A program made the translations under genes and the position numbers. From NCBI GenBank assembly GCA_964587735.1, contig CAZPMB010000003.1, positions 1 to 50,774 of the forward strand: a stretch of 50,774 nucleotides of DNA. Reading direction: 5' to 3'. Numbering within the stretch: the stretch's first letter is position 1; each line of letters starts with the position of its first letter. The notes beneath the pieces were generated by a model that saw nothing but the letters and a program-made list of their open reading frames with translations, was not told where the DNA came from and searched no databases. Shown here one piece after another: positions 31,160-47,003 of this stretch. This DNA is from an uncultured Candidatus Bathyarchaeia archaeon. Lineage in GTDB: Archaea > Thermoproteota > Bathyarchaeia > TCS64.

Positions 31160-32788
31160 CTATCTCTTTTTGAGGACCCGCCCGGACAGGGCGCCGGTGT
31201 GTTCGCCGCGCCTCAGAGTCACGACGCCGTTCACCACGAGGTGCTCTATCCCCTCGGGGTAACGCATCGTCGCCTCAGGGGGCACGAAGTCCGACCTGTC
31301 GATGACGGTTTTGGGGTCGAAGACAGCGATGTCCGCCCACATCCCCGGCAAGACCAGCCCACGGTCGTTTAGCCCCAGGATCCTGGCGGGAAGGGAGGTC
31401 ATCTTCCTAACGGCCTCCTCCATCACTATCACCCCCTTCTCCCTGGCGTAGACGCCCAAAACCCTGGGGAAGGTGCCGTAGAACCTGGGGTGGGGGGCCG
31501 TAATGTGCTTGGCCAGCACCCCGTATGGGGCGTGGGCCTCTCCGTCTGAGCCGACAGCGACCCACGGCCGGGCCATTATCGCGTCCACGTTCTCGTCCGT
31601 CTGGTTGAAGTTGACGAAGCTGAAACCGCCCTTCAGCTCCTGGGATGCGAGCTTTGCGACGTGGGCCCTGAAGAGGTCGAAGACGGTGTCCTCCCCGCTC
31701 TTACCCCTCGACTCGGCCACCTCAGCTATGGTCTTACCTACGATCGAAGGGTCAAGGGGGTAAGTCGAGATGAGGGCAGCCTCCGAACCTCCCCTGTCGT
31801 CCATGGCCCTCGCAAGCCCTTCCTTGATCTTGGGCGACACCTCGGGGTCCTCGAGCCTCTCCGCCAGGGCCTCCAGGCCCCCCTCGTTGGCCCAGGCCGG
31901 GATCCATGCTCCCGGACCCGTTCCGCTGGCCCTGTAGGGATACTGGTCTGCGGTCACGTCGACGCCCCTCGCCCTCGCGTCCTCCACCATCCCGATGAGC
32001 CTCGGGCAGACGCCCCAGAGCCGCCTGGAGAGGACCTTGAAGTGGGAGATGTTCACCGGGAGCCCGGCCCCCTCGCCGATTCCTATGATCTCCGCCACCG
32101 CCCCGACGGGGTCGCCCCTATCCCCCTCGTCCCTGATGTGGCTCGCGTAGTAGCCGTCGTATCGGGCGACGACCTTCGCCAGCTCTATCACCTCCCCGGT
32201 CTCTGCGTAGCTCTGGGGGTCGTACCTTAGCCCCGCGGAGATGCCGAAGCATCCGGCCTCCATCGCCTTCGCGACCTCAGCCCTCATCGCCTTCAGCTCC
32301 CTCTCTGTCGGCGCCCTCATCTCCATCCCCATGACGTACTGGCGGACCGTTCCGAAGCCTACCTGGGGTGCGACGTTCACCGAGATGCCGCCCTCCTCGA
32401 GCTTATCGAGGTACTCCCCGACGGTGGACCAGTCGACTTCGACACCAGCCTCACCCAGGTAGGGGTTCTCCCGCTCCACCTCCTCCCTCATCTCGTCGTT
32501 GAGGGGCGCCGCTCCCCCTCCGCAGCTCGGGAAGACGACGGTCGATACCCCCATGTGGACCTTGCTCTCGGCCCTCCTGTTCACGAGCAGGGCGAAGTCG
32601 GAGTGGTCGTGGAGGTCGATGAAGCCGGGGCACACGATCTTTCCGGAGGCGTCCAACTCCTCCGTCGCCCCCCCGGAGACCCTCCCCACGGCCGCGATCC
32701 GCCCGTTCTCGACTGCCACGTCCGCCCTGAACCAGGGGTTGCCTGCCCCGGTGACCACCCTCCCGCCCTTTATCAGCAGATCGAACAT
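31160..32788 (-). CDS. N-acyl-D-amino-acid deacylase (D-aminoacylase family amidohydrolase)
   Basis: PGFIDLHDHSD, SHIRDEG, ISHFK, VGSDG, HPRFYGTFPRVLG, ADIAVFDP. ATG at 32788. Confidence 0.93.
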   Translation of the reverse strand: MFDLLIKGGRVVTGAGNPWFRADVAVENGRIAAVGRVSGGATEELDASGKIVCPGFIDLHDHSDFALLVNRRAESKVHMGVSTVVFPSCGGGAAPLNDEMREEVERENPYLGEAGVEVDWSTVGEYLDKLEEGGISVNVAPQVGFGTVRQYVMGMEMRAPTERELKAMRAEVAKAMEAGCFGISAGLRYDPQSYAETGEVIELAKVVARYDGYYASHIRDEGDRGDPVGAVAEIIGIGEGAGLPVNISHFKVLSRRLWGVCPRLIGMVEDARARGVDVTADQYPYRASGTGPGAWIPAWANEGGLEALAERLEDPEVSPKIKEGLARAMDDRGGSEAALISTYPLDPSIVGKTIAEVAESRGKSGEDTVFDLFRAHVAKLASQELKGGFSFVNFNQTDENVDAIMARPWVAVGSDGEAHAPYGVLAKHITAPHPRFYGTFPRVLGVYAREKGVIVMEEAVRKMTSLPARILGLNDRGLVLPGMWADIAVFDPKTVIDRSDFVPPEATMRYPEGIEHLVVNGVVTLRRGEHTGALSGRVLKKR

Positions 32789-33027
32789 ACGGATCAAGGA
32801 AGCCACCCAGGGACTGATATATCTTTTAGCCGAGCCCGGTGTTGAATGGTGGCTTATTTGTCATTTGCAACGAAAGGTCTGAAGCGCAGTAAAGCTATTA
32901 CTGGTCGTTCCCAGGATTTTCTCAGTTGTTCCAGTTCGATGTTCAAGGGCTTGGATGGGGATGACGCAGCTTTATCTACTGTGCCTGTTAAATATGGAAT
33001 GCGTCAGTGAATGTTGGTGAACGATGT

Positions 33028-33597
33028 ATGTTGATCCCACCGATGGTAGGCCAGGAGGGGGGAGGGTTCGACATCATATGGTTACTCCTCCCACTTCTGT
33101 GCTGCGTTATGGCGATGTCCCAGCGGGGAGAGAGGCCACAGGCGCATGAAGCGACAACGGAGTCGTGGTACACGACCCAGGGCATAGGGGCCGCCTACTC
33201 GGCGATAGAGGCCGAGATCGGCGAGTGGAGGGAGGAGGCGGCCGCGAGGCAGAAGGAGAGGGCTGGGTCCATGACCTCCAGGTTAAGGGGCGTCCTCGGC
33301 GGGGGGAGGGAGCAGGAGAGGTACGTGGTGAGGGAGACTAGCCCTCCGAAGCTCTACAAGATGGACGACGCCTCGGGCCCGATTTACTTCGAGCTAACCG
33401 AGGTGGAGGGAGGGGGGACGGTCGTCAAGGCGACCTACAACTCGGCCATTAAGAGCAAGATGGCAAAATTCAAGGCCAAACTGCCACTGAAGATCCCTGC
33501 AACCCCAATAGGCAACAGGTGCCCGTCCTGCGGGAAGCCCGTGCTCAGGGAGTTCAAGCTGTGCCCGTACTGCGGCGAGCAGCTGATAACGGAGTAG
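33028..33597 (+). CDS. Membrane-anchored protein with C-terminal double zinc ribbon
   Basis: N-terminal TM (IIWLLLPLLCCVMAM). CPSCG...CPYCG at the C-terminus. Confidence 0.78.
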   Translation: MLIPPMVGQEGGGFDIIWLLLPLLCCVMAMSQRGERPQAHEATTESWYTTQGIGAAYSAIEAEIGEWREEAAARQKERAGSMTSRLRGVLGGGREQERYVVRETSPPKLYKMDDASGPIYFELTEVEGGGTVVKATYNSAIKSKMAKFKAKLPLKIPATPIGNRCPSCGKPVLREFKLCPYCGEQLITE

Positions 33598-33606
33598 GCC
33601 TGCGGT

Positions 33607-34038
33607 ATGGAGTACTGGCGGCTCCTCGCCCATAGCCACTGGCTCACCCTCAGCGTGCTCGGGAGGGAGGTTAGGCTGTGCGCCCGTTGCTCAGGGTACG
33701 CGTTGGGCCTCCTTTCCTCAGCTGCTCTCCAATACCTCTTCGGGCTCGGTCCCTTCACCTCGCTTAGCGTCGGTCTTCAATTCCTAGTCTGCTTGCTGTT
33801 AATCCTGCCCCTGGCCTTCGACTGGGTCACCCAGTCATGGGGGTTGAGGGAAAGCAACAACCGCCTGAGGCTCATCACCGGCACCATGCTGGGCGTAGGC
33901 ACATTCCTCTTCTTGCTGATCGGGGCCCTTCCCCCCCTGAAGAACTCGTACTACCTCTCGGCCGCGATTGTCGTAGTCATTCTGGGTTCGATGGGGGAGC
34001 TGGTAGACAAACGCCTCTCACGCCCTAAACTTGTCTGA
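33607..34038 (+). CDS. DUF2085-like membrane protein
   Basis: LCARCSG, PLAFDWVTQ..GLRESNNRLRLITG, 4 TM. Confidence 0.8.
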   Translation: MEYWRLLAHSHWLTLSVLGREVRLCARCSGYALGLLSSAALQYLFGLGPFTSLSVGLQFLVCLLLILPLAFDWVTQSWGLRESNNRLRLITGTMLGVGTFLFLLIGALPPLKNSYYLSAAIVVVILGSMGELVDKRLSRPKLV

Positions 34039-34283: not shown

Positions 34284-34919
34284 TTACATCGGTATTATCT
34301 TCAGTACCTGAAGGAAGAACTGAGCCCTTCCCGCGAGCATCGACATCCTGAAGAGGACGGTGTTGGCGAAGTATACGCCCAGGCCGATCATGATAATCCA
34401 TCGGCCGATCCGGGTTGGGTAACTCAAGGCGCCGGTGTGCTCGTAGGTCAGCAGGAAGTAGGTTATGGCGCAGATGGTGCCAATGGCGACGTAAACGAAA
34501 GTGAACCAATCGATCGGCGCGTTGCCTGTTGGCGGCCTGATTGTTGAGATCACCTGGCTCAACAGGTTTGGTATTAGAACCCCCCTCATCCCTAGGCCGA
34601 ACCCTGCGCCCACGAGGATGGCGATGGGGTACCTGCTCACCCATCGATATTCGGAGATTAGGAGAGCGTACATGGCGAATCCTAGGATTAATGGTATAAC
34701 GTAAATGACTTCCCCTGCCATGAGCGGTCTTATGGCTATCCTGGTGACGTTCCCTATAGCCACCATCAACGATATTGCCATGGTTATCCCTATGTAGAGG
34801 TGCTCTGCGAACCTGTAGGCAGGAGTCTCCTTATAGAGGACGTAGCTGTAGACCATCAGTAACAGGAGCCATTGAAACCAGAGTCCAGATAATCCAAATA
34901 GATCAGTCGGATAAGCCAT
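34284..34919 (-). CDS. Cassette B subunit 4: multi-TM hypothetical protein
   Basis: FAEH, SRYPIAILVG.G.GL.MR and FANTVL.R motifs shared with 43378-44097. Confidence 0.85.
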   Translation of the reverse strand: MAYPTDLFGLSGLWFQWLLLLMVYSYVLYKETPAYRFAEHLYIGITMAISLMVAIGNVTRIAIRPLMAGEVIYVIPLILGFAMYALLISEYRWVSRYPIAILVGAGFGLGMRGVLIPNLLSQVISTIRPPTGNAPIDWFTFVYVAIGTICAITYFLLTYEHTGALSYPTRIGRWIIMIGLGVYFANTVLFRMSMLAGRAQFFLQVLKIIPM

Positions 34920-34920
34920 C

Positions 34921-35754
34921 TCATTTACCTCCTTTTCCTCTGGCAGAGAGCATGCCGATATTGGCCAATATCACGGCAGCGATAACTAAGAGATGGGAGA
35001 CATTTATCGAATCCATGGTGACTGTAGCAGATCCGGGCTCGCCTATCAACTTCTCCATCTCCGCGCCACCCCTGGAGCCCACGCTCATGCCGAAGAGGAC
35101 CCCAGCCCTATAATGGGGCATGTAGCTCGACCCCAGCATGGCGATACCTATCTCGCCTACAGGCGTGCCGTAATTGGTGTGCCACTGCCTTATGTAGTAG
35201 TCGCACCAGTCGCCTGTGTCGCCCGACAGAACAAGTCGGATGTCGCGAGCCGAATTCACGTTCTTCATCATCTCAATCTGATCGAGTGGTGTCCCATAGG
35301 CATCCGTTGGGAATACGGTTCTGATGTTAGCGCCCAATTGAGCAACCGCGGCCTCCAAGCCCGCGTAGAATCCGAGGAAGACGTAATCCTTACCATATTC
35401 CTTTTGGGCGAAGTCCGGGACGAGCTCTTGAAGTCTTGCCCATAAGATTTGGTAATCGACATAAGGACTTACAAAGATCAACTTCGCACCTTGCCTCAGA
35501 ATAATCTTCGTGCTGGCTGCCGTTGCGGGCATGCATTCGGGTATCCCGCCTACGCCGAAGGCTTCGTTGAGGAGGACGACGTCGCCTGGTTGTAAGGTTT
35601 TTAGCTCATTATAGAGACTTAGGGTGCTCGGCGTTACGGCGATGGGTAAACCTATGGGTCGGATAAAGGGGATCGCTAGGCCTATGAAGAGTATCCAGTA
35701 TAGGTATCTTCTGTCGATTTTCTGCAGCTTTACGAGGATCGACTCTCCGCTCAT
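34921..35754 (-). CDS. Cassette B subunit 3: TM-anchored alpha/beta domain protein
   Basis: N-terminal TM + RPIGLPI, soluble domain (YGKDYVFLGF, IRQWH), C-terminal TM. Paralog of 44102-44950. Confidence 0.85.
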   Translation of the reverse strand: MSGESILVKLQKIDRRYLYWILFIGLAIPFIRPIGLPIAVTPSTLSLYNELKTLQPGDVVLLNEAFGVGGIPECMPATAASTKIILRQGAKLIFVSPYVDYQILWARLQELVPDFAQKEYGKDYVFLGFYAGLEAAVAQLGANIRTVFPTDAYGTPLDQIEMMKNVNSARDIRLVLSGDTGDWCDYYIRQWHTNYGTPVGEIGIAMLGSSYMPHYRAGVLFGMSVGSRGGAEMEKLIGEPGSATVTMDSINVSHLLVIAAVILANIGMLSARGKGGK

Positions 35755-36407
35755 TTCCCTCCAGCCACCTCTCCATAGTAGCCCTTCTCCCTTCCAAGGA
35801 GAGCCCTTAGGCCGTAGGCGAGCAATCCGAAGGCACCAACCATCATAAACGTCCTCATAGCCGGAACTTGACCGTAGTCAAGGAACCATCTACCGACTAT
35901 AGGGATCTGGTTCCAGATCACCTCACCGATTGGTGCGTTAGTCAGCAGCACTATGCAGCCAGCCATAAGGAGTAATGCGGCATCTATGTTTCTGGCCCTG
36001 AATGCCCTGTAGGCAGCTGAGAAGATGTAGAAACCTGTCATTGCATAGAAAGTAGCATCGAGGCTTACGTATGGGTTCGAGAATATCCAGTCGTATAAGC
36101 TGTTGCTTTGTGGGTCACCTGTCGACGCATAGCCTACGAGACCAGTAATAAGAGTTAGCGCGAACAATCCAACGAGCATACCGCTGTATTGCCAATTGGT
36201 GCTCCTCCTCTGTATGACCTTACCATGTGACATCATCATCCTTATGGCGCCGAGTCCCATGGCTATGTTGTAGATGACCATGCCCCATGTCTGGACCTGC
36301 TCACCTATCCACGTGGATGTCTCGAAGAAGAAGAAGTCTATGAACATTATAGCGACGATTATAGCAGTTACAAGATATACGACCTGTCTTTGGAATATCG
36401 ACGACAT
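35751..36407 (-). CDS. Cassette B subunit 2: multi-TM hypothetical protein
   Basis: GFY..S..YRAFRARN, NAP, GRE.G shared with 44953-45633. 4-nt overlap with the next gene. Confidence 0.85.
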   Translation of the reverse strand: MSSIFQRQVVYLVTAIIVAIMFIDFFFFETSTWIGEQVQTWGMVIYNIAMGLGAIRMMMSHGKVIQRRSTNWQYSGMLVGLFALTLITGLVGYASTGDPQSNSLYDWIFSNPYVSLDATFYAMTGFYIFSAAYRAFRARNIDAALLLMAGCIVLLTNAPIGEVIWNQIPIVGRWFLDYGQVPAMRTFMMVGAFGLLAYGLRALLGREKGYYGEVAGGK

Positions 36408-36411
36408 CTTC

Positions 36412-37197
36412 TCACATCCTTAGTATGTCTATTAGAGAGGTGATCCTGCCAAGCCCGAGTAAAAAGCCAACGGCGATCAGCGCAAGGAATGCGAACTTGA
36501 TGATATCTTCGCCTTTGATGCTGCCCAACATGTGAGGGTCCTCGCTGATGGTTGCGCCCGCGGCGTACAGCTCCTCGCTGAGGAGCATGTAGTCGCATGT
36601 TGCAACCATGAAAGGCATCTGGTGGGTATTGGCGGTGCCCCCGATCTGGAAAGCCCCAATTGCGTTGCCGGCCTCGCCCATGATAACCGACTCGTAATAG
36701 AAGCCGCCGATCAGTATGTTCGAAGCCGGTCGCTGCCTCTGGAAGTAGCCGAGGGTCGCCGACAAGTACGGGGACTGCTCAGATTGGAAGTGGATCATGT
36801 CCAGATCAAACTCGTCCGGCTTCCCCTCGGCGAGGAAGGCCATTCTCATCGTTTCCTCGACCAGAGGAAGTGCGTCCTGAATAGGGACGAAGGCGTCCAA
36901 CCTGACACCCGATTTTATGCACTCCCTTAAGATGTATCCCATGATGCTTATCGATGCCAGCACCTGCGGTCCCTGAGTCGGATCGTTCAAGTTTCCAGCA
37001 ATGCCGGGAGTATAGTAGATGGGCTTACCCATCTCAGCAGCCCTTCCAACGGCCTCTGGTATGGCTGCCATAGCCGGTAGCGTCCTGACCTTTATCTTCA
37101 TTCCTCCCTTCCCCAGGTACATGAACAAGTAGAAGAGCGCGAAAGCGACAACCATGAGAACAAAAGCCATCAATCGTCCTGCAACTATTACTGCCAC
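36412..37197 (-). CDS. Cassette B subunit 1: DUF6754-like protein
   Basis: IPEAVGRAAEMGKP, CDYMLLSEELYAAGA. TM at both ends. Paralog of 45644-46429. Family name from recall. Confidence 0.82.
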   Translation of the reverse strand: MAVIVAGRLMAFVLMVVAFALFYLFMYLGKGGMKIKVRTLPAMAAIPEAVGRAAEMGKPIYYTPGIAGNLNDPTQGPQVLASISIMGYILRECIKSGVRLDAFVPIQDALPLVEETMRMAFLAEGKPDEFDLDMIHFQSEQSPYLSATLGYFQRQRPASNILIGGFYYESVIMGEAGNAIGAFQIGGTANTHQMPFMVATCDYMLLSEELYAAGATISEDPHMLGSIKGEDIIKFAFLALIAVGFLLGLGRITSLIDILRM

Positions 37198-37408
37198 TGT
37201 TTTTCCCTTCCTTTTTCCCGTCTATCACGCGGGCAAGCTCAATCCAAGCAGCAGCTCGAATCGTGGCTTCTTAGCCCGTCGATGAATAGACTAATTTCTC
37301 CTTTTTATTCTCTTCATTATATAACATTTCTCTGGAAAACACGCCAAAATCATTATAAAATGGCATTTTGCGGAAAGAATTAATCAATCATCTTTAATGT
37401 ATATGAGC

Positions 37409-37822
37409 TTATTCCCGTTCCTCTGAAGCGGGTCCCACTGCTTCCTTCTTACCGAACTTTGACTTGAGGGCGAGGTAAGCGCCGGCGACGCCACCGACCG
37501 CGAAGATGACCAGAACGACGACGGCGAAGCCGATTACGTTCTCGATGTTTGATGACAGCACGAAGAAGAGATTGAGCGCGCTGGCCGCGGCCGCAACCTT
37601 CAGGCCCACCGACAGGTGTTTGGACGACGCCCTCCTGCAGACGAGATAGGACGAGATTATTGCCCCCAGGAGGAAAGAGATGTACTCTGCGTCGGCAAGG
37701 ATCGCCGCCGGTGCCCAGGAGAGATAAGGCAGGGCCTGGTACCATATCCAGACGAATCCATTTGCGAGCATCGCCCCCGCCGCATAGTCGAACAGCGTGG
37801 GAACCCCGTCTTCCCTGCCCAA
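37409..37822 (-). CDS. 4-TM membrane protein, paralog 3
   Basis: DY.AGA.LAN..VW.W, VCRRASS.HL.VGLKVA, GG..GAYL. Confidence 0.8.
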   Translation of the reverse strand: MGREDGVPTLFDYAAGAMLANGFVWIWYQALPYLSWAPAAILADAEYISFLLGAIISSYLVCRRASSKHLSVGLKVAAAASALNLFFVLSSNIENVIGFAVVVLVIFAVGGVAGAYLALKSKFGKKEAVGPASEERE

Positions 37823-37994
37823 AGGATTTAGACCGGTCTCTATCTCATCGACTCTGTATAAGAACCTTACACGATTTCGCCTGCGCCCTCGTCAGGCAGA
37901 TGGCGAAGTCACTCAGCTTTTACAAGCCTTCACAGGCGGCTAATAGGCATTAACCTATTTCAACTACCATTGTTTTAATTTCCCTAACAGGCGT

Positions 37995-38042
37995 ATTTTG
38001 ATTGATCATCTATCAAAATTCCGCCGTTCTAATCCTTAGAAC
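37995..38042. promoter_or_regulatory. Two palindromes in a divergent promoter region
   Basis: ATTTTGATTGAT-C-ATCTATCAAAAT (37995-38019, one mismatch). GTTCTAA-TCC-TTAGAAC (38026-38042). Confidence 0.45.
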
Positions 38043-38119
38043 GATTCCATGGCTCAGTTGGACGCTTGTTCTAAAGCATGGTATAATTACCCGGGACCCA
38101 CACCCTTACTCAGACAAAA

Positions 38120-38926
38120 ATGAACTCGAAACAGCAGTACATCTCTGTGTTCGCGATCTGTGCGACCATCATCATAGCAACGGCGATGATAACATACAAA
38201 CCTCTGATACCACTTGAAGAAGAAGGAGACCTGTTCAAGTTCCCCGCAGGCATACCGCCCTCATTGAGCACGACGTCATCCGCGACAAGCGTCGGCGAAG
38301 ACCAGGTAAAGGCGATACACGTCTCGGGCTCGGGTAGCGCATCGGCGAAAGCCAACCAGGCGACGGTAACCCTTGGCGTCACCACCGAGGATCCCTCGGC
38401 ATCAGAGGCCGTCGAGGACAACGCGGCGCTGATGAGTTCGGTGATCCAGGCCATCAAGGCTCTCGGCATCTCCGAGGAGGACATCAAAACCGTCCAGTAC
38501 AGCGTGTACCCGAACTACAACTGGGAGCTTAGGCAGACAGTCGGCTACAGCGTCACCAACATGGTCGAGGTGAAGATTGTAAACCTCGACATTGTGGGCG
38601 ACGTCATAGACGCCGCGGCTGAGGCCGGTGCGAACAACATCCAGGGCATAGCATTCGGCCTGTCCGACGAGGTCGCTGAAGGGCTGAAGACCGAGGCGTA
38701 CGTGAAGGCCCTCACGGATGCGAGGGGCAAGGCGGACCTCATCGCCGAAACTCTGGGGCTTGAGATCACAGGCGTCCTATCGGTCAGCGAGAGCGTATAC
38801 TACCCCTACACGCCATACACGTCCTACAAGGGATACGCGGAATCGGTCTCAGCCGCGCCCACGCCGATCATCGAGGGCACCCTGAGCGTCTCTGTCAGCG
38901 TCCAAGTGTCCTTCACCTTCCAGTAG
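38120..38926 (+). CDS. SIMPL/DUF541 (BP26-like) domain protein with N-terminal anchor
   Basis: IHVSGSGSASAKAN.ATV.LGV, IKTVQYSVYP.Y, GYSVTNMVEV, GANNIQGI.F, A..DARGKA..IA. Confidence 0.9.
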   Translation: MNSKQQYISVFAICATIIIATAMITYKPLIPLEEEGDLFKFPAGIPPSLSTTSSATSVGEDQVKAIHVSGSGSASAKANQATVTLGVTTEDPSASEAVEDNAALMSSVIQAIKALGISEEDIKTVQYSVYPNYNWELRQTVGYSVTNMVEVKIVNLDIVGDVIDAAAEAGANNIQGIAFGLSDEVAEGLKTEAYVKALTDARGKADLIAETLGLEITGVLSVSESVYYPYTPYTSYKGYAESVSAAPTPIIEGTLSVSVSVQVSFTFQ

Positions 38927-39066
38927 ATCGCGACCACAACAACTCTCTTTTTTCTATCTGACTCGAAATCTAGGCAGAACTGGGTTAACCAGTGTAACAC
39001 TCGCTTCATGGGTATCAAAAAGGAGAATTCGCACGACGATGAAAAATAGGGGATTTGAGGAGAGAG

Positions 39067-40224
39067 TTACTCCTCAATTATCTCCACATTGGCCCTAGGC
39101 ACCGTAACCACGGTGCCGTCCTCGAGCTCCACGTCGAGGACCCTGACGAAGGACTCCGACTCGAGCTGCTGGAGCTCAACCGGAAGGCTGGCCACTTTGC
39201 CTATTGCCCCGAAGTAGGGCTTCCTGATGATGCGGACCGGCGTGCCGGCGACCATGCCCCCGGCAAGTTCCTCCTCGGAGCCCTTCGGTGAGGCCTCCTG
39301 GTGGGGGATGATTATCTCGGGCCTGAGGACGCCCGCCCTGATCTGCGTTGCACCGTTGACCGAGGCGTAGTACCCGTCGAAGCTCTTGAGGAGGCTGAAC
39401 GTCGTCTCGGACATCTTCATCTTGCCGAAGCCCTCCGTGATGATGATGGTGATCCCCACCTCCTCCTCTCCAGTAATTGCGACCCCTATCTCAGTGCCTA
39501 TGAAGGAGGTCAGGTCGCTGTGGCGTATGCCCCCGGCTACGATGCACGAGACGCCGACCTCTACGGCCCTCCTCAGGGCCTCCATTGTGACCATCGATCC
39601 GCCCACGAGCACGGCTCCTTTGTCGTCGGGTTTGATTTGGTCCACCGTTAGCTCGTCGTCGGGGGACGCGACGGCCACCCTAATCTTGCCGTAGCTCTCG
39701 CCGCCGATGCCGAAGATGCCCTGGACGAAAGCGGCGTTTGTCCCGACGATGGCGCCTTCCCTGGGCATCACTTCGACGACCTTGCCGGGGATGTACGAGT
39801 CTATCTCCACGGGCACGGGCTTGCCCCTGACGATGAGCTGCCCCGTTATGTCCGATATGGCCTCGATGGTTCCGGCCACGGGGGATGTCACCTGCTTCTT
39901 TATGAGGCCGAAGAGGGCCGTGAAGTAGGCTATCATCTCGCCCTCATCGACGGGATCCCCCACCTTCTTCTTCATGTAGCGGTAAAGGTCATCCGGCTCG
40001 ACGCCGAGGAGCATGGCTGCCTTCACGATCTCCGGGTCTCCGCTTATCTCGGTCCTGGCCGTGACGGTTTCGTGCTCGACGACTTCGCCGACCTTTACAA
40101 GCACCTCTCCGAGGATCGGTAGCCTACGCGTTTTCAAGACCGACATGACACGCTTAACCTTCAGGCCCGGGGTGTATGCGTGTGCCTCGGTTGAGGATTT
40201 CTTGTCCCCTTTCTTCTTGCTCAT
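39067..40224 (-). CDS. GlmL-associated hypothetical protein with barrel-sandwich-hybrid-like repeats
   Basis: AYTPG; GEVLVKVGEVV; KKVGDPVDEGEMIA...SPVAGTI; QGIFGIGGE; GGSMVTMEAL...IVAGG; C-terminal VRIIRKPYFGAIGKV..LP...VPRANVE. ATG 40224 starts 2 nt after the glmL-like stop. Confidence 0.85.
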   Translation of the reverse strand: MSKKKGDKKSSTEAHAYTPGLKVKRVMSVLKTRRLPILGEVLVKVGEVVEHETVTARTEISGDPEIVKAAMLLGVEPDDLYRYMKKKVGDPVDEGEMIAYFTALFGLIKKQVTSPVAGTIEAISDITGQLIVRGKPVPVEIDSYIPGKVVEVMPREGAIVGTNAAFVQGIFGIGGESYGKIRVAVASPDDELTVDQIKPDDKGAVLVGGSMVTMEALRRAVEVGVSCIVAGGIRHSDLTSFIGTEIGVAITGEEEVGITIIITEGFGKMKMSETTFSLLKSFDGYYASVNGATQIRAGVLRPEIIIPHQEASPKGSEEELAGGMVAGTPVRIIRKPYFGAIGKVASLPVELQQLESESFVRVLDVELEDGTVVTVPRANVEIIEE

Positions 40225-40225
40225 C

Positions 40226-42061
40226 TCATACAAGCTCCTTCAGTTTGTCTATTGGGTAAAGGTCCAGGCTCTTGAACCAGTTAAACAACAGCTCCTTCCG
40301 CTGGCTCAGTTCCTCAGGCATTCTAAGTGGGCGACCCCTTCCGTCCAGCAGTACTCCCGCCACTCCGCCCATGATTTTTGCCTTGGTGGCTTTTCCGGGC
40401 CCCTCACCCACGTCGAAGTTCTTGGCAGGCGTGATCAGTGCCTCGGCGTCAACCCTCTCGGCCAGTGGTATGCGCTTGATCTCGCCGAAGTTGATCTTCT
40501 CCTCAATCGTCTTCCCGTCCGGCATATCGAGCTTTACTGTCATCGCGGGCTCTCCTGGGTTCGTTGTCCCAGCGGCCGCTATGCATGTACCCATCCTGAC
40601 TAGGCAGTCCTTGTCGAATATGTTCCACGCCGCATCCCTGTAGACCGTCGAGAGGACTCCGAGGTGGGGCATCATGAAGACGCTGTCCTGGAACATCTTG
40701 GTCACCCCCTCGGGCTGCCAGGCATCGGTCAGGATGAACATCGGCTGGACCCGCCTCGGCGCGTGGCTGAGGAGCCCCCCAGTCCCGGCGATGATGTCTA
40801 TGGCCATCATCTTTATGTAGGTTTCCTCGATGGCCTGGTCGAACATGTCGGCGATAGTCCTCTGCACCTGGATCCCCTTCAGCCTCGTCGCGATGGTCTT
40901 ATGGTGCTCCAACCCCAGCCTGAGGGCCTCCCGCGCCACGGAGTGCTCTACTATCAGGTCCTCGAGGGTCTGGGGGATGGTCGTCGGCCTGATCATCTTG
41001 TTCATCAGCCTGCTAGAAACCTCCTCCTCGTCGACGTCGAAGGGTATCCACCTCATTATGTTCCTGATACCCGCCTCCTTCATCACGTTGGTCACGCTGT
41101 AGCTCATCCCGAGGTTCGCGCTGACGCTCCTGACGAACCGGCCATCCACAACCGAGTAGACGTTCGTCGTAGCGCCGCCCAGGCCCACTCCCATGACGTT
41201 CTCCTTGTAGGTGCTGGCGATCAGCTGCATCGCCATTCCCTCCCCCGCCGGAGTGGGCATGATGGGCGTGTCGGTCCATTTCATCAGCTTCGTGTAGCCG
41301 GGCGCGTGGCTCATGACGTGCTCCATGAAGAGCTCGTGGACCGCCCGGCGGGCCGGCTCCGTGTTCTCGATCTCAAGCACCGGTCGTAGGTTATCGACTA
41401 TGTCCAGGGCGAACTCCCCGCCTATCAGTTTCTCGACCTGGGGCCTCAGTGACTTGTTCCCGGCGTAGACGATGGGGAGCTTGTACGCAGCCCCGAGCCG
41501 TGGCCTTGGCTCCGCGGCCTTGAGTAGCTCCACGAGCTCGATTACGTGCTCCGTCGCGCCCCCATCGGTCCCCCCCGCCAGGAGGATCATATCCGGCCTG
41601 AGGCTCCGGATCCTCTTTATCTTCTGGTAGGTCTGGCGCCCGTCGTCGCGCGCGATGACGTCCATGACGATGGCGCCCGCCCCGAGGGCGGCCCTGTTCG
41701 CGCTCTCGGCGGTCATAGCCTTGATGAGGCCCGCCACCATCATCTGGAGTCCACCTCCCGCGCTGCTCGTCGTGCAGTACAGGTCAACACCCATCTTCCC
41801 GTCGTAGGGGACGACGATCCCGCCACCGTCCGGGGAGAGGATCTTGTGACCCGTCAGCTCCTCGACCTCCCTGACGGCGTTCTGGACCCCCATGGTCACG
41901 TCCTCGTAGGGCGCCTCAACGGTAGTCGGTGATTCTCCAGCCACGAGGAAGCGCCACTCGCCTTCCCTCTTGTGGAAGAAACGGGCCTTCGTCGTCGTGC
42001 TCCCGACGTCGGTCGCCAGTATGTACTGCATCTCCTCAGTTGGCTTCCTGAGAGCGGCCAA
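40226..42061 (-). CDS. GlmL/MutL (glutamate mutase L)-family ASKHA-fold protein, C-terminally extended
   Basis: Phosphate-1 ATDVGSTTTKA; CTTSSAGGGLQM; PDMILLAGGTDGG; MPTP; phosphate-2 GVGLGGATTNV; RSVSANLGMSYS; adenosine-like AGTGGLLSHAP. Confidence 0.88.
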   Translation of the reverse strand: MAALRKPTEEMQYILATDVGSTTTKARFFHKREGEWRFLVAGESPTTVEAPYEDVTMGVQNAVREVEELTGHKILSPDGGGIVVPYDGKMGVDLYCTTSSAGGGLQMMVAGLIKAMTAESANRAALGAGAIVMDVIARDDGRQTYQKIKRIRSLRPDMILLAGGTDGGATEHVIELVELLKAAEPRPRLGAAYKLPIVYAGNKSLRPQVEKLIGGEFALDIVDNLRPVLEIENTEPARRAVHELFMEHVMSHAPGYTKLMKWTDTPIMPTPAGEGMAMQLIASTYKENVMGVGLGGATTNVYSVVDGRFVRSVSANLGMSYSVTNVMKEAGIRNIMRWIPFDVDEEEVSSRLMNKMIRPTTIPQTLEDLIVEHSVAREALRLGLEHHKTIATRLKGIQVQRTIADMFDQAIEETYIKMMAIDIIAGTGGLLSHAPRRVQPMFILTDAWQPEGVTKMFQDSVFMMPHLGVLSTVYRDAAWNIFDKDCLVRMGTCIAAAGTTNPGEPAMTVKLDMPDGKTIEEKINFGEIKRIPLAERVDAEALITPAKNFDVGEGPGKATKAKIMGGVAGVLLDGRGRPLRMPEELSQRKELLFNWFKSLDLYPIDKLKELV

Positions 42062-42169
42062 TTCGATTCCCTAAAGGTTTTACATAGATCAGTCTTAAAG
42101 TTTTCCTAAAGCTTCCGACGAGTTTTCTCTGAAACTTTCAGGGGTCTCGGTTATGGGCTAAACCTCTAA

Positions 42170-42568
42170 TCAAAAGGGGAGGAACCGCCTCCAACCCCTC
42201 TTCGCTGGCGCTACCTCGCCCCCCTCTGGCCCTGCCCCCTTTGTGGGCTGCTCTGTCTTCTTCTCTTTCTCCCTCTTCTTGTCTTCCTCTGTCATCTTTT
42301 CCAGCATTGATATGAGCTTCTCGACGTTGTCGTGCTTCTCGAATACCTGAAGCAACTTCTCGCCCCCCATCTCGATCTTCTCCCCTAGGGCCGGAAGGAA
42401 CGGGGCGAGGAAGAAGCGGCCCATCTGCGTCCCTATGAAGCTCAGGGGCTTGACGGTCTCTAGGAACAGGATGCCGACGACGTCCATCCCCGTCTTATGG
42501 ATCGTCTCGGCCACCTTCCTGATGTACGCCTCCTCCTCTTCGGGGGTGAGATTTATCTCCCTGAACAA
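42170..42568 (-). CDS. Small hypothetical protein upstream of the glmL-like gene
   Basis: ILFLETVKPLSFIGTQMGRFFLAPF amphipathic core, charged tail, coding-like composition. Confidence 0.78.
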   Translation of the reverse strand: MFREINLTPEEEEAYIRKVAETIHKTGMDVVGILFLETVKPLSFIGTQMGRFFLAPFLPALGEKIEMGGEKLLQVFEKHDNVEKLISMLEKMTEEDKKREKEKKTEQPTKGAGPEGGEVAPAKRGWRRFLPF

Positions 42569-42604
42569 ACTGGGCCCCTTGCCTACACCGAAAGCTGAGT
42601 AACC

Positions 42605-43054
42605 TTAAGGGCCCCCGGATTTAAAATCTTCCTCGCCCTCATTCGGTTTTCCCTTCGCAGAGGTTCTCCCCTTGAGCATGGCCCTTATCGTCAGATAGGC
42701 CCCGCAAAATCCCCCCGCCGGGAAGCACACGAGCAGGATGATGACCAGGCCCAAGGAGAACTCCTCGAGGATGGGGAGAACGATGAAGGGCGAGACGACC
42801 AAGGCCAGGGCGGCGACCTTGAGTCCAACAACCAGGTGATCCGACGATGCCCTCCTGCACACCTGATAGGAAGCCAAAGTCCCGCTTAGGAAGCACACGA
42901 TGCTCGTCGCCAGAGAGAGGAGGCCGGGAGGCAAACCGGAAAGGACGTCGCTGAAATAGCCCATCGCCTGCAGCCAAACCCACACGAGGCAATTCGCCAG
43001 TACCGCCCCGGCCATGTAGTCCGTCTTGCTGGGCTTCCTGTCCTTATCCGCCAA
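42605..43054 (-). CDS. 4-TM membrane protein, paralog 2
   Basis: DYMAGAVLAN..VW.W, VCRRASSDHLVVGLKVA, GGFCGAYL. Confidence 0.8.
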   Translation of the reverse strand: MADKDRKPSKTDYMAGAVLANCLVWVWLQAMGYFSDVLSGLPPGLLSLATSIVCFLSGTLASYQVCRRASSDHLVVGLKVAALALVVSPFIVLPILEEFSLGLVIILLVCFPAGGFCGAYLTIRAMLKGRTSAKGKPNEGEEDFKSGGP

Positions 43055-43377
43055 GGCTCAATCAACCTCCGAAACTTATAATCTAGGGAATACGACTTTT
43101 ACATCTCTTAATCACTCGTCCTTATTTATCTCATGCGGATAGTGTCGAGAATCGTCTCTGAGCGGTTTTCATGGCAGAGAAATCAAGTAGATCTCGAGCC
43201 GAAAGCCTTGCCCACGTCTTGAAGCGTCCCAAACTAAACTCGATAAACATTAGCTCTTATGCCCCATTTGTTGCACTGATCGGTAATGGCCCTCTCCTCA
43301 TGTCTTTGCCTCGGCCATTTGGCAAACTGTCTGGTTTTTGAGGATGTAAAAAAGGGGATTAGAATTTATTTCGGTAT

Positions 43378-44097
43378 TTATCCTGGTTGTATTGGTTTAG
43401 GCCAGGGTCGTTTCTCGGCCGGAATCATAGCGTATACTAGCAGTATCAGGACGACCGGGAATGTGATCATTGCCCCTGGGAGGGGCAGCCATTGGCTCAT
43501 GATGAAGTCGAGTCTTCCGAAGATCATGTTGAACCTGGAGAGGATCGTGTTGGCGAAGGAGTAGCCGAATGCGGCCATCATCCCGTACCTGGCGAATCTT
43601 GATATTATCCCGAGGTTTCCGCCGTGCATGCCCGGGAAAGTGAATATGAAGAAGTACACGACCGTCAGCACCAGTACTATGAAGAGTATATTGCTGAAGC
43701 CGGTCCAGGCGTCGACCCCAAGCACCTTGATCTTGGCCGTTGAGCTGATTTGAGCAATGAACTCGGCCGTCACGGCGGCTCTCATCGAGAGGCCGATGCC
43801 GATGCCGACCATTATCGCTATGGGGTACCTGCTCATCCAGAAGTATTTGGAATATCTGGTGTAGAGGAGGAATCCGAGCAGGAAAACAACGGCGTAGACG
43901 AAAGCCCCCCTTGCGAAGGGCGTCCAGCCACATCGTATCACGTTGTCGACGCCCATAACGATCTCGTGACCTGCGGCGGCTCCGACGAACGTGTGTTCCG
44001 CGAACTTGAAAAAGGGATTGTCTCTGAAGGCTATACTGTATACCCAGATTGTGAACAGGGCCGCGGCCCATATCTGGAAGACCGTGTTAAAGTCCAT
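43378..44097 (-). CDS. Cassette A subunit 4: multi-TM hypothetical protein
   Basis: FAEH, SRYPIAIMVG, FANTIL.R. Start at ATG 44097 (MDFNTVFQIW), just after the preceding stop at 44102. Confidence 0.85.
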   Translation of the reverse strand: MDFNTVFQIWAAALFTIWVYSIAFRDNPFFKFAEHTFVGAAAGHEIVMGVDNVIRCGWTPFARGAFVYAVVFLLGFLLYTRYSKYFWMSRYPIAIMVGIGIGLSMRAAVTAEFIAQISSTAKIKVLGVDAWTGFSNILFIVLVLTVVYFFIFTFPGMHGGNLGIISRFARYGMMAAFGYSFANTILSRFNMIFGRLDFIMSQWLPLPGAMITFPVVLILLVYAMIPAEKRPWPKPIQPG

Positions 44098-44101
44098 CCA
44101 C

Positions 44102-44950
44102 TCATCCCTTCCTCGAGGCCTTGCTCGCATAGTAGGCGATGTTACCGAGCACGACGTAGGCGAGCACCAGGATGTGCGTGGTCGTTATGACGTCGGCCGA
44201 TTTTATTCCCCGTGCCGGCTTCCCGACGAGTGATTCCATCTGGCCCGAAGTGGCCCCCGCCAACAACGCGACGATCTGCCCCGCGTTTCGATACGGAAGC
44301 ATCGTGGGCACCATCATGGCTAAAGTGGAGCAGAGGTAGGGCACCTGATAGGGCGTGTACCACTGCCTCACCCACCCCTCCGACTGGTCGCCGCCCGTCG
44401 TGTAAACGATCAGCGTATCGAAGCTTGAGGCGTCCGTGATCCCCTCCATAATGGGGAACTGATCGAGCGAGACCCCCTTGTAGTCGGTGGACGTCGTCGC
44501 CCTCAGGTCCTTTCCAACGGCCGCCATCGCCGTCTCTGTACCGGTTATGAAGCCGATGTGAATGTAATCCACACCGTACTGTGCACCATACTGCCCAGGG
44601 TTAACCTCCGCCATGGCCTTCTCCCAGAGAAGCGGGCCCTCTGTCGACGTCGACATCGCTATCGCCTTGAGCCCGCCCCTCCTGAACATGTGATGGTACA
44701 CAGCCACAGCCATCGGCCCGAGCTCGGGCTCCCCGCCGCCCGAGTATCCGAAGTCTATCATGATCACCGATCCATCTGGAAGGTTCTCTATCCAGTTGTA
44801 CCACCTCTTCGACTCGTCCGATATTGGTATGGGGAAGCCTATCGGCCTCACCATGGGTATGATGAACGCTATCAGCAGTAGGCCGTACAGTATCTCCCTT
44901 GGGACGTTCTCGAGCCTGCTCCAGATCCCCTTCTGCTCACTGCCGCCCAT
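44102..44950 (-). CDS. Cassette A subunit 3: TM-anchored alpha/beta domain protein
   Basis: RPIGFPI, IDFGYS, YGVDYIHIGF, VRQWY, C-terminal TM. Confidence 0.85.
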   Translation of the reverse strand: MGGSEQKGIWSRLENVPREILYGLLLIAFIIPMVRPIGFPIPISDESKRWYNWIENLPDGSVIMIDFGYSGGGEPELGPMAVAVYHHMFRRGGLKAIAMSTSTEGPLLWEKAMAEVNPGQYGAQYGVDYIHIGFITGTETAMAAVGKDLRATTSTDYKGVSLDQFPIMEGITDASSFDTLIVYTTGGDQSEGWVRQWYTPYQVPYLCSTLAMMVPTMLPYRNAGQIVALLAGATSGQMESLVGKPARGIKSADVITTTHILVLAYVVLGNIAYYASKASRKG

Positions 44951-44952
44951 CT

Positions 44953-45633
44953 TCAGCCCCCCTTCTCGGCCTCGGTCAACCTGCCGAGGAACCCTGTCTC
45001 CCTACCGATCATCGTGCGTATGCCAAGGGCGATTGCCCCCAGGGCCGCGCCGATCATGATCCCCCTCTGCGCCGAGGTCGTCGGTATTGCGCTGATCCAT
45101 GCCTCCATGTTTATGACGATCGGCGCAGCAACGGCTATCGCGGGGGCGTTTCTCATGATGGCTATCGCCCCGACTATTAGAAGAAGCATCGATTCGAGAT
45201 TTCTCGCCCTCAAGGCACGATATATGCCAGATGTCATATAGAATCCCAAGGATGAGTAGACGGTTGCGCTGAGCGCGAAGTACGAGGAATTGTAAAGCCA
45301 CGAGTAGGTACTTGAAGTTGCCCCGTATCTGATGCCGGTAACGGCGAAGATAATGATAATGAGGAGAAGCCAGATGCTGAACGGCCATTGTCCCTTGGTG
45401 CGCCGGGAGATGTGCCGTGTGTGAAGGTAGGAGAGGTTTACGGCGCCGAATCCGAGAGCGAACGCAGCTAGTACGATCCCCCAGTTCTGTATGTCCGTGA
45501 CGAGAGAGCTCGTCCAGCTCTTTTTCGTCACCGCGTCGATCGGCGGTAGCTGAAGGAAATAGTCGGCCATTATGATCAGCGCCGTGACGAAGACGATGAG
45601 AATCGGGATCTGCCTTCTGACCATTAGAGACAT
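44953..45633 (-). CDS. Cassette A subunit 2: multi-TM hypothetical protein
   Basis: GFYMTSGIYRALRARN, NAP, IGRETG. Confidence 0.85.
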   Translation of the reverse strand: MSLMVRRQIPILIVFVTALIIMADYFLQLPPIDAVTKKSWTSSLVTDIQNWGIVLAAFALGFGAVNLSYLHTRHISRRTKGQWPFSIWLLLIIIIFAVTGIRYGATSSTYSWLYNSSYFALSATVYSSLGFYMTSGIYRALRARNLESMLLLIVGAIAIMRNAPAIAVAAPIVINMEAWISAIPTTSAQRGIMIGAALGAIALGIRTMIGRETGFLGRLTEAEKGG

Positions 45634-45643
45634 ATTCTTTCAC

Positions 45644-46429
45644 CTACATCTTCAACAGGTCGATGAGTGCGTTACTGCCGAATGCGTAGATGACGACCCC
45701 GACGAACATCAGTATCAGCGCGACGATTTTGCCCAGATCCTGCCCCCTGATGCTGCCCGCCTGCAGCGGGTCCTTTGACAGATAGGCGCCCGCGGCGTAG
45801 ATCTCCTCCGCTATGAGGAGGTAGTCGCAAACGACGGCAAAGAATGGGATCTGGTACCCCCTCGCCGTCCCGGCCAGCTGTATCGCCCCGATCCTGAAGA
45901 AGGTCTCCGAGAACAGCATGGACTCCGCGTAGAATGGACCGATCATTATGTTCGCCGCCGGGCGCTCCCTCTCGGCGATTCCCTGCACGGCTGATGCGTA
46001 CGCGAATTGTTCGCCCGAAAGGTACCTGATCTGGTCCTCCGCGTTGAACTCCTCAATCTTGCCGGCCCTGATATAAGCATCCCTCATCAGCTCCGTCGCG
46101 ATCGGCATCACCTGGGCCGCATAGACAGAGTAGATGATCTTTACACCGTACTTGGCGGCCATCTCAGAGGCGTATCCCAGCACGGCCAAGCCGGCAACGA
46201 GCTGCGGCGCGACGGATTCAGTCAGGCTGCCCAGGCCCGTTGTGAAGTGCACGGGCCTGTTCATCTCCGTTGCCCTCCCCATCATCTCGGGCAACGCGTC
46301 GAGGCCTGGGAGCCTGCGGAAGGTTGGTAGCTTCTTCTTGGCCAGCTCCATACCGCCGATTATGAATATCCATAGAACTGCCAGCATTCCGAGCGCGAAG
46401 ATTCTTCCTGTGACTAACACAGAATTCAC
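45644..46429 (-). CDS. Cassette A subunit 1: DUF6754-like protein
   Basis: RRLPGLDALPEMMGRATEMNRP, CDYLLIAEEIYAAGA, terminal TMs. Confidence 0.82.
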   Translation of the reverse strand: MNSVLVTGRIFALGMLAVLWIFIIGGMELAKKKLPTFRRLPGLDALPEMMGRATEMNRPVHFTTGLGSLTESVAPQLVAGLAVLGYASEMAAKYGVKIIYSVYAAQVMPIATELMRDAYIRAGKIEEFNAEDQIRYLSGEQFAYASAVQGIAERERPAANIMIGPFYAESMLFSETFFRIGAIQLAGTARGYQIPFFAVVCDYLLIAEEIYAAGAYLSKDPLQAGSIRGQDLGKIVALILMFVGVVIYAFGSNALIDLLKM

Positions 46430-46598
46430 CTTTCTTTTCAGTTAAATATAATCTATTTACCCGTTATAACACTTTTCAGGATACATGGACAAATTGGAAA
46501 TTTAATCACGCAGCGTGGTTAACTTCCGATGGAATTGTGGATACCATTTTAATTTAACCTGTCTGAGATGAACTTACATTAATCACTCGAAGATCATC

Positions 46599-47003
46599 TT
46601 ACTCCTTAACTAGATTCTTCCTAATCTCAGATCCATGAAACGTTTTAGCTAGGAAACCGCCAATCACTCCTCCCACAGTAAAGCTTGCGAAATACACAAT
46701 CACCCCCCAGAGAGCCTCATGATATTCAAAGACAATCAATCTGAATACTGTGTTCAACAGAAATGCCCCGAACCCGGCTCTCAACCCAACATGCACCTGC
46801 TTCGACGGCATCCTGCGCGTTAAGCCAAAGGCGCCAAGCAACGCCGCCTCAATATACACAAAGACTGACAGTATCGTATAGTTCAAAGCCGTTTGACCCG
46901 GGAAGTACAGCGAGGCGATGTATTCCCACAGCCACGAGATCCCACATGCGATCAGCGCCGCGCCAAAGTAGCTCTCAAAACCCGGGAAGGTATCTTCATT
47001 CAT
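46599..47003 (-). CDS. 4-TM membrane protein, paralog 1 (more divergent)
   Basis: SYFGAALIA..SW.W, TRRMPSKQVHVGLRA, GGVIGGFL. Confidence 0.72.
   Translation of the reverse strand: MNEDTFPGFESYFGAALIACGISWLWEYIASLYFPGQTALNYTILSVFVYIEAALLGAFGLTRRMPSKQVHVGLRAGFGAFLLNTVFRLIVFEYHEALWGVIVYFASFTVGGVIGGFLAKTFHGSEIRKNLVKE

Follow-up and report, generated by a model that had tools for sequence, protein, structure and literature searches.

Several described systems share part of their design with the locus reported here. In MsmK/MsiK-type ABC importers, one ATPase serves several sets of permeases and binding proteins. DdrAB, the reactivase of diol and glycerol dehydratases, is composed of an actin-fold ATPase and a dedicated smaller partner, and it binds the Rossmann-like domain of its client. 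Our locus lies at positions 34284-47003 of a 50,774-nucleotide stretch of DNA from an uncultured Candidatus Bathyarchaeia archaeon (contig CAZPMB010000003.1), which was analysed as a whole and is called the window below. It combines two four-gene membrane cassettes, A and B, whose subunits belong to four families named here F1 to F4, with a module of three proteins, S, G and P, in which G belongs to the GlmL/MutL family of ASKHA-fold proteins. F1-F4 may be a transport system of a new kind that takes up peptide-like or acyl-amino-acid substrates, with S-G-P as an accessory module that serves several cassettes, a reading to which we give a probability of about 0.4.

The ensemble appears to be new. 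No cassette subunit has a characterised relative, and the literature searched, archaeal dark-matter surveys included, holds no description of a membrane system of DUF6754, PF13941 or GlmL-like proteins. For none of the cassette subunits did the searches turn up an explanatory solved structure, curated family or paper; sequence and profile searches of the PDB with G, P, F1 and F3 gave nothing significant, and no protein of the system has a solved relative that is detectable by sequence. The function proposed below is read from sequence.

Gene organization of the locus

The locus holds 15 open reading frames (ORFs), 14 of them on the minus strand, in the order T1-A1-A2-A3-A4-T2-S-G-P followed by T3-B1-B2-B3-B4; the gene of a SIMPL-family protein, which is on the plus strand, is placed between P and T3. 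Gene order and strands are those given in a first-pass annotation of the sequence, which had also described two paralogous four-gene cassettes with tight spacing, each encoding two proteins with multiple transmembrane (TM) segments and two with a TM, alpha/beta domain, TM layout, and all of this is borne out.

Cassette A comprises A1 (F1 family, 45644..46429), A2 (F2, 44953..45633), A3 (F3, 44102..44950) and A4 (F4, 43378..44097), and cassette B comprises B1 (36412..37197), B2 (35751..36407), B3 (34921..35754) and B4 (34284..34919). BLASTP identities are 40% for A1/B1 (E 5e-59), 31% for A2/B2 (E 5e-34), 32% for A3/B3 (E 1e-48) and 31% for A4/B4 (E 2e-31), and by these alignments the two cassettes are true paralogues. 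A1 and B1 are the only subunits with a Pfam family, DUF6754 (PF20539; gathering cutoff 27), which A1 matches at 249.4 bits (E 4e-74, profile 10-253 of 257) and B1 at 217.6 bits (E 2e-64). Above cutoff, A2-A4, B2-B4, S and P match neither a Pfam nor an NCBIfam family.

The spacing is 10 nt for A1>A2, 2 nt for A2>A3 and 4 nt for A3>A4 in cassette A, and 4 nt for B1>B2, a 4-nt overlap for B2>B3 and 1 nt for B3>B4 in cassette B. These gaps of 1-10 nt and overlaps point to translational coupling. The A4 ORF could reach 44130; its start is most likely the second ATG, at 44097, because this position agrees with the homologues and yields the 4-nt gap and not a 29-nt overlap.

S, a small acidic protein (42170..42568), G (40226..42061) and P (39067..40233), which overlaps G by 8 nt, are encoded between the cassettes, and the SIMPL-family protein (38120..38926, plus strand; PF04402, E 3.5e-53) has an N-terminal TM or signal segment. 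Three small membrane proteins accompany these units: T1 (46599..47003), which has about four TM segments, precedes cassette A, T2 (42605..43054) precedes S-G-P and T3 (37409..37822) precedes cassette B. In BLASTP, T2 and T3 share 44% identity and T1 and T3 share 29%. With DUF3792/TIGR04086, T1 scores 27.5/26.8 bits and T2 21.9/23.4 bits, all under the curated cutoffs of 31.3/30, and T3 has no match to either model.

The exact 11-mer CGAGTGATTAA occurs on the minus strand in the intergenic DNA upstream of T2 (43108-43118) and A1 (46579-46589), and copies with two mismatches are found upstream of A1 and B1. It was set aside because its 7 matches compare with 8.2 expected in the window and because it is not kept in relatives.

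The F1-F4 cassette is a conserved unit

For the cassette survey, an alignment of DUF6754 was scanned against one genome per GTDB species, which gave 79 loci, and gene order was established by searching six-frame ORFs with hidden Markov models made from the window proteins. The full run F1-F2-F3-F4 is present in order in 73 of the 79 loci, and the remaining 6 end at contig edges. The loci belong to Bathyarchaeia, Methanomethylicia/Culexarchaeia, Bacillota (Fermentithermobacillaceae and Symbiobacterium), Cloacimonadota, Latescibacteria and Armatimonadaceae; among the cassette-bearing species, Symbiobacterium thermophilum is cultured. By gene content and order, F1-F4 is one conserved unit. From this strict co-occurrence and gene order we infer that the four proteins assemble physically, as one hetero-oligomeric complex; transport by this complex, its cargo and the docking of S-G-P on it are proposed in the same conditional sense.

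Several genomes have two or three cassettes, also as tandem arrays; a 410-kb Bacillota contig, for instance, has three loci, and the complete genome of Ca. Fermentithermobacillus has two. At 90% identity the F1 family itself falls into 5192 clusters; for 50% identity the number of representatives is 1919. Three contigs assigned to bacterial metagenome-assembled genomes, of Krumholzibacteriaceae (L011), Desulfaltia (L015) and Patescibacteria (P0294), encode cassette and G proteins that are 78-82% identical to the Bathyarchaeial ones with the same synteny; their assignment probably reflects binning errors and not recent transfer.

Topology and anatomy of the subunits

F1 and F3 share a layout in which a soluble domain of about 200 aa is enclosed by TM segments, and F2 and F4 are polytopic, with about six TM segments in A2 and six in A4. 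Structural models of A1 and P were made with AlphaFold2 on shallow multiple sequence alignments of 38 and 42 sequences. The A1 model (pLDDT 79, pTM 0.76) begins with a long N-terminal TM helix, which leads into a five-stranded parallel Rossmann/flavodoxin-like domain and then into a C-terminal helical hairpin; residues 187-204 form a conserved loop of low model confidence, and a conserved G-x-G follows strand 1 of the F1 domain. Foldseek comparison of this model with the PDB gave no match at E<=0.001. The best match had E 0.03, TM-scores were at most 0.31, and the folds found were generic Rossmann folds, the best of these weak matches being NAD(P)-binding folds.

In 67 F1 homologues, lysine plus arginine average 0.9 before TM1 and 4.25 after it. 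In many bacterial F1 proteins a signal peptide stands ahead of TM1, along with FN3 repeats or other beta-rich ectodomains, and the FN3 assignment is supported by matches to the FN3 domains of titin and IL-6R-beta (E 7e-20). Charge and domain order are two independent lines of evidence. As signal peptides and ectodomains precede TM1, the F1 N-terminus is placed outside, and with the strongly basic residues directly after TM1 this puts the DUF6754 domain in the cytoplasm. F3 has the reverse charge pattern, which is why its alpha/beta domain (about 215 aa in A3) is predicted to be external: in 76 homologues, lysine plus arginine fall from 2.9 ahead of TM1 to 1.2 behind it and stand at 3.4 in the C-terminal tail, so that the protein reads as having both termini inside. 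The two anchored alpha/beta subunits had been proposed to form an external binding heterodimer, which does not agree with these topologies, in which only F3 looks external. The density of sequons and cysteines does not separate F1 from F3.

F3 has no Pfam, NCBIfam or PDB match. In hhalign it aligns with F1 at E 0.001 and 21% probability over 218 colinear columns, from TM1 to the last TM segment, and F1 and F3 may be ancient paralogues with inverted topology. F2, which has a conserved YRAFRAR motif, probably has its N-terminus inside and F4 its N-terminus outside; both have conserved polar residues. The TMD0_ABC model is matched by 10 of 40 F2 family members, all under threshold. Homology between F2 and F4 was considered and is unsupported (hhalign E 0.035), as the alignment is not colinear with larger profiles.

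Many bacterial DUF6754 proteins are 400-1012 aa long (P0365, P0371, P0380, P0401, P0470, P0431 and others; loci L045, L078, L118, L121, L129, L132, L138, L144 and L147). Besides those with ectodomains, other long members have coiled-coil and Ig/PKD-like tails beyond the last TM segment; the C-terminal extension is PKD-like by eye, and a PDB sequence search did not confirm it. The proteins of 800-1012 aa were considered as fusions with F2-F4, which would have counted as Rosetta-stone evidence; this was rejected since they carry ectodomain or coiled-coil extensions. The idea that the long N-terminal extensions are fused T or S domains was also rejected.

The S-G-P module

G matches PF13941 (MutL/GlmL) over the complete profile (1-450 of 450) at 394.9 bits (E 6e-118), against a gathering cutoff of 27. 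It stays under the cutoffs of the three narrower models, with 214.8 bits for the GlmL equivalog NF040745 (cutoff 475), 218.7 bits for NF040744, the GlmL-related ornithine degradation protein Or-4 (cutoff 600), and 146.4 bits for TIGR01319, glmL_fam (cutoff 204). G is about 150 aa longer than GlmL and has a conserved extra C-terminal domain of about 125 aa; the bacterial homologues aligned are 51-58% identical to it over about 600 aa. G forms a new branch within a family that itself has only a presumed function.

The ASKHA phosphate-1 motif (ATDVGSTTTKA) and an adenosine-type motif (GTGGLLSHAP) are kept in G. The phosphate-2 motif, at residues ~291-301, is VGLGGATTNV in the window protein and in Bathyarchaeial and Culex-type homologues, and VDIGGATTDV in bacteria. 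With both aspartates lost, robust ATP hydrolysis by the window protein is in question, and the ATPase chemistry of Bathyarchaeial G may differ.

The first-pass annotation had pointed to a GlmL-like gene with a partner and no mutase, and this is what the searches returned. None of the 38 window ORFs scanned has a mutase or B12-binding Pfam match, the DxHxxG...SxL...GG signature is absent from window ORFs of at least 90 aa, and in neither of two nearest-neighbour censuses of related loci (126 and 90 proteins) do the 25 commonest families include a mutase. Homologues of G are publicly named glutamate mutase L or methylaspartate mutase (P0277, P0293, P0294, P0297, P0306 and P0309), names that are probably misleading because no mutase gene is close by. 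Homologues of P are publicly named NusG or biotin carboxyl carrier protein (P0133, P0138 and P0205), and these names look misleading as well.

Of the 33 P loci whose flanks reach 3 kb or more to either side, 27 have G in the same locus. In the P model (pLDDT 73), the N-terminal half is beta-rich and includes a biotinyl/lipoyl-like barrel-sandwich domain; a small alpha/beta domain follows, and the C-terminus is KOW/SH3-like. Foldseek matches its KOW domain and, weakly, NqrA (8acy_A; E 0.015, probability 0.54, TM-score 0.15), and the sub-threshold Pfam matches of P are Biotin_lipoyl and RnfC_N (17.8 bits, E 0.0034, cutoff 25.6). A subgroup of P-like proteins occurs without G (L093, L124, L136, L141, L156 and L159), with accA and an outer-membrane beta-barrel-like gene next to it, which shows the P family to be wider than the G-P pair.

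In S, for which 26 homologues from archaea and bacteria were aligned, a hydrophobic hairpin is conserved, a linker is rich in K and E, and the C-terminus carries a GWRRFLPF-type motif. Two diverged G-P pairs stand in a row, as G-P-S-G-P, in Symbiobacterium-type Bacillota (L032, L037, L039, L054 and L070) and also in L084-L088 and L091; in these loci, the first P has an inserted second barrel domain of about 75 aa. The type with a cassette in front, F1-F4-G-P-S-G-P as in L032, is that of Symbiobacterium thermophilum.

Linkage between S-G-P and the cassette

G and P are found within 10 kb of the cassette in 16 of the 79 cassette loci, which belong to Bathyarchaeia, Symbiobacterium-type Bacillota and Latescibacteria. 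Starting from P, a scan of metagenomes with its alignment yielded 80 loci, of which 19 have at least 6 kb on both sides; these 19 include a cassette in 8 cases, G in 16 and S in 11. Look-ups of Bathyarchaeial G or P homologues gave six distinct contigs (L080, L081, L082, L164, L165 and L166), four of which carry a cassette; L083, a second assembly of the L082 locus, is left out of this count. Of the conserved neighbours of G-P, the cassette is much the most common. Near G-P loci without a cassette no other family is recurrent, the top Pfam family reaching only 3 among 90 neighbours, with two exceptions: a small 2-TM protein upstream of bacterial G-P (cluster c0, 11 loci) and DUF483 (9 loci), which also follows B-type cassettes without G-P.

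One S-G-P module occurs with two or three cassettes in Bathyarchaeia (L001, L075 and L080) and also in a bacterial lineage with FN3-bearing F1 (L118, L129, L132, L144 and L147), and the order cassette, S-G-P, cassette recurs in L001, L075 and L132, of which L075 and L132 have the flanking layout of the window. This multi-cassette pattern in distant lineages makes functional coupling likely. S is found directly beside cassettes without G-P (L002-L004, L008, L010, L014 and L016), and it also accompanies G-P where no cassette is present. In other Bathyarchaeial loci, T-like genes stand ahead of cassettes or of S-G-P, and they too occur with either module alone. As each of them is found with either module alone, S and T are the best candidates for a physical bridge. 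A contig with G-P only (L125) and a Culexarchaeial cassette contig (L022) from the same metagenome have a tetranucleotide correlation of 0.98, which suggests that some genomes hold both modules at separate sites.

The association of S-G-P with the cassette is far beyond chance and evolutionarily persistent, and it is facultative in gene neighbourhood. Of the earlier proposal that one ASKHA protein and its partner serve two alternative membrane complexes, the recurrence in Bathyarchaeia and distant bacteria stands and obligate coupling does not, given the unlinked loci on both sides. No finding speaks specifically for transport energised by G or for a PilM-like scaffold, the two roles named in that proposal.

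Genomic neighbourhood

In the nearest-neighbour census of the 79 cassette loci (126 neighbours), the commonest families are Amidohydro_3/1 with 11 members, DUF483 with 8, ThiN with 7, PALP and M81/MlrC with 5 each, M20 with 4, and Peptidase S9 and the beta-lactamase fold with 2 each; S58, C26 and M14 peptidases are also recurrent near related loci. The window has an Amidohydro_3-type amidohydrolase by Pfam (31160..32806, minus strand), 1.5 kb beyond B4, which is regarded as context and not as a subunit. Its cluster is the most frequent conserved neighbour of the cassette (14 of 79 loci), it is 35% identical to the neighbour of a Bacillota cassette, and its best NCBIfam match, PRK09061, is under cutoff. 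The peptidases noticed around the locus at first reading are thus part of a wider pattern, as amidohydrolase and peptidase genes are recurrent neighbours in related loci. An S9 peptidase adjoins T1.

The rest of the window is rich in genes of peptide and amide catabolism and transport. M28, creatininase-family, LemA+M48, M42 and S9 peptidases and three MFS transporters are encoded at 3085-4893, 9126-9983, 14845-16065, 17069-18537, 18696-19967, 20055-21167, 21344-22615 and 47275-48273. A DUF362-4Fe4S protein is encoded at 10217-11305, and its family is also recurrent near G-P. Just beyond B4, on the plus strand, a zinc-ribbon protein (33007-33597) is paired with a DUF2085 membrane protein (33607-34038), and the same pair is directly upstream of S-G-P in L080 (6529-7518).

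The SIMPL gene had been taken as an insert; it is not a random one, since 10 related loci (L043, L062, L064, L071, L073, L079, L082, L083, L092 and L154) also have a SIMPL homologue on the opposite strand close to the cassette or to G-P. A Cys-rich DUF483 protein (GYPxCC...FxPCxPxC) directly follows F4 in L043, L062, L064, L067, L071, L073, L074 and L079, and a DUF483 protein directly follows P in L084, L085, L088, L090, L152, L154 and L164; being found after either F4 or P, it links both modules. The window has no DUF483 protein. In a complete Bathyarchaeial genome (L164, CP070640.1), the order is T-S-G-P-DUF483-MFS-SIMPL, without a cassette, and in the syntenic L166 it is T-S-G-P-F1-F4-DUF483-(MFS fragment, 158 aa)-SIMPL-amidohydrolase. 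Though it is one case only, it hints at an exchange in situ, in which cassette and MFS transporter could replace each other.

Proposed function and alternative explanations

The uptake reading is suggested by the two polytopic subunits, the expansion of paralogues and tandem arrays, the variable ectodomains, the catabolic hydrolases among the neighbours and the MFS case. In the mechanism proposed, the external, membrane-anchored domain of F3 would contact the substrate, as may the FN3 or beta-rich ectodomains of F1 in many bacteria. The polytopic F2 and F4 would form the path through the membrane, and the Rossmann-like cytoplasmic DUF6754 domain of F1 would be the inner face of the complex, which T would accompany in Bathyarchaeia. 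Paralogous copies of the cassette would have different specificities. On the cytoplasmic side, G as a GlmL-family ASKHA nucleotide-binding protein and P as its beta-barrel/KOW partner would form, with S, a module able to serve several cassettes: docked on the complex, it would gate it, energise it or bring it to maturity. S is proposed as the adaptor because it stands beside cassettes without G-P and beside G-P without cassettes.

Several findings weigh against this reading. No G-P is present within 10 kb of 63 of the 79 cassette loci, and 11 of the 19 well-flanked P loci have no cassette; with the two modules so often apart, G-P cannot be an obligatory motor. Both phosphate-2 aspartates are lost in Bathyarchaeial G, the external placement of F3 comes solely from the positive-inside rule, and the cassette neighbours in Methanomethylicia and many Bacillota are housekeeping genes. 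Moreover, no subunit resembles a known transporter by sequence or fold in searches of Pfam, NCBIfam and the PDB.

A bolder form of the uptake reading, which we hold to be speculative and improbable as a whole, is drawn by analogy. The system would be the first transport machine that is powered or gated by an actin-fold (ASKHA, GlmL-family) ATPase and not by a P-loop ATPase or an ion gradient, S-G-P would dock through S on the DUF6754 domain of interchangeable cassettes, and F1 and F3 would be ancient paralogues of inverted topology. The way in which B12-enzyme reactivases grip a Rossmann domain and remodel it with ATP would then be reused at the membrane.

The linkage could also be metabolic only. 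F1-F4 would then be a stand-alone, probably ion-driven transporter or another membrane complex, and S-G-P a separate, co-regulated cytoplasmic ATP-dependent enzyme or chaperone, which does not dock and which matures or reactivates another protein or processes an imported compound. The many unlinked loci on both sides, and the modules that are apparently on different contigs in the Culexarchaeial population, agree with this explanation, as does the identity between archaea and bacteria, which is 51-58% for G and about 27-32% for F3 and fits an enzyme or chaperone with constraints of its own; GlmL relatives are thought to act on soluble enzymes. However, no alternative client recurs near G-P, S and T are found with either module, and the 2-TM protein upstream of bacterial G-P hints that S-G-P itself works at the membrane, so that we consider a purely metabolic link rather unlikely, though a serious competitor. 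If instead G were an ordinary GlmL-type reactivase of a B12-dependent mutase encoded elsewhere, its place between the cassettes would be coincidental. Its Pfam assignment and the public names of its homologues are what such a role has in its favour; this role is hardly credible for a protein that lies far under all three curated GlmL/Or-4 cutoffs, possesses, in P and S, a fixed partner and a small protein that classical GlmL lacks, and adjoins the cassette in three phyla, far beyond chance, with no mutase or B12 signature in the window and no mutase family among the top 25 in the 216 nearest neighbours.

Two further explanations give the membrane subunits another role. In a cell-surface or envelope machine, whose work on extracellular polymers or surface structures would be to hold, process or export them, the F1 ectodomains would bind and G-P would be a cytoplasmic scaffold or motor loosely like PilM, FtsA or MreB. 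The fusion of F1, in many bacteria, to large arrays of FN3 domains and to other beta-rich ectodomains, the recurrent SIMPL neighbour, a secreted or periplasmic protein, and the actin-fold ATPase core of G would suit such a machine. Yet the neighbour censuses show no secretion, pilus, glycosyltransferase or cell-wall genes that recur beside the cassette, ectodomains are altogether absent from the F1 proteins of archaea and Bacillota, and polymerisation is not known for GlmL-family proteins; this explanation appears quite unlikely. An ion-translocating or redox complex like Rnf/Nqr, with two small polytopic subunits, anchored internal and external domains and P as an NqrA/RnfC-like peripheral subunit, is less probable still. 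The sub-threshold RnfC_N match and the weak NqrA match of P point in its direction, together with the Rossmann-like domain of F1, its G-x-G after strand 1 and its weak best matches to NAD(P)-binding folds. Against these, none of 76 F2/F4 proteins matches the Rnf-Nqr family at E<=0.1, F1-F4 have no conserved Cys/His clusters or flavin-attachment motifs, no RnfD/NqrB equivalent is present, and the TM-score of the NqrA match is 0.15.

Should F1-F4 be an uptake system, it would be a new transporter class and a missing piece in the acquisition of detrital peptides and acyl-amino acids by major sediment heterotrophs. The cassette forms about 1900 clusters at 50% identity in sediment archaea and several bacterial phyla, and F2-F4, P and S are without a curated family. 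A large branch of the family named glutamate mutase L, whose members are labelled mutase components and have no mutase gene nearby, is redefined, and the GlmL fold could prove to have a role outside B12 enzymology.

Comparison with known systems

Among actin-fold proteins of membrane assemblies, PilM and FtsA are not close to G, whose only Pfam match is MutL, and neither the window nor the neighbour censuses contain PilN/O-like genes. The resemblance to Rnf/Nqr is one of layout, with two polytopic subunits of about 200 aa, TM-anchored domains on either side of the membrane and a P protein that is weakly RnfC/NqrA-like. The differences are the lack of Rnf-Nqr matches, of cofactor motifs and of an RnfD/NqrB equivalent, and another gene order.

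With the MsmK/MsiK-type importers, the locus shares one cytoplasmic nucleotide-binding module beside two or three paralogous cassettes and the catabolic hydrolases near them. Unlike the ATPase of ABC importers, G has the ASKHA and not the P-loop fold, and the membrane subunits are unrelated to ABC permeases; none of the 15 locus proteins matches ABC_tran or BPD_transp. As the cytoplasmic domain of F1 is Rossmann-like, a docking logic like that of DdrAB is conceivable, although the sequence and fold comparisons gave no evidence for a link between P and DdrB, and no B12 enzyme was found either.

GlmL/MutL and Or-4 are the closest relatives of G, which matches PF13941 end to end and keeps the phosphate-1 motif ATDxGSTTTKA and the GTGGLLSHAP motif. 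In contrast to them, G is longer, is always paired with P and usually with S, and has no mutase neighbour of the glmS/glmE, oraSE or kamDE kind; its commonest conserved neighbour is a membrane cassette, and the Bathyarchaeial copies are without the phosphate-2 aspartates. A1 and B1 are clear members of the Pfam DUF6754 entry, to which no function or context is attached and of which the 8.3 million papers searched make no mention. What is new in comparison with this entry is the fixed partnership of DUF6754 proteins with three further families, their topology and their link to a GlmL-like module.

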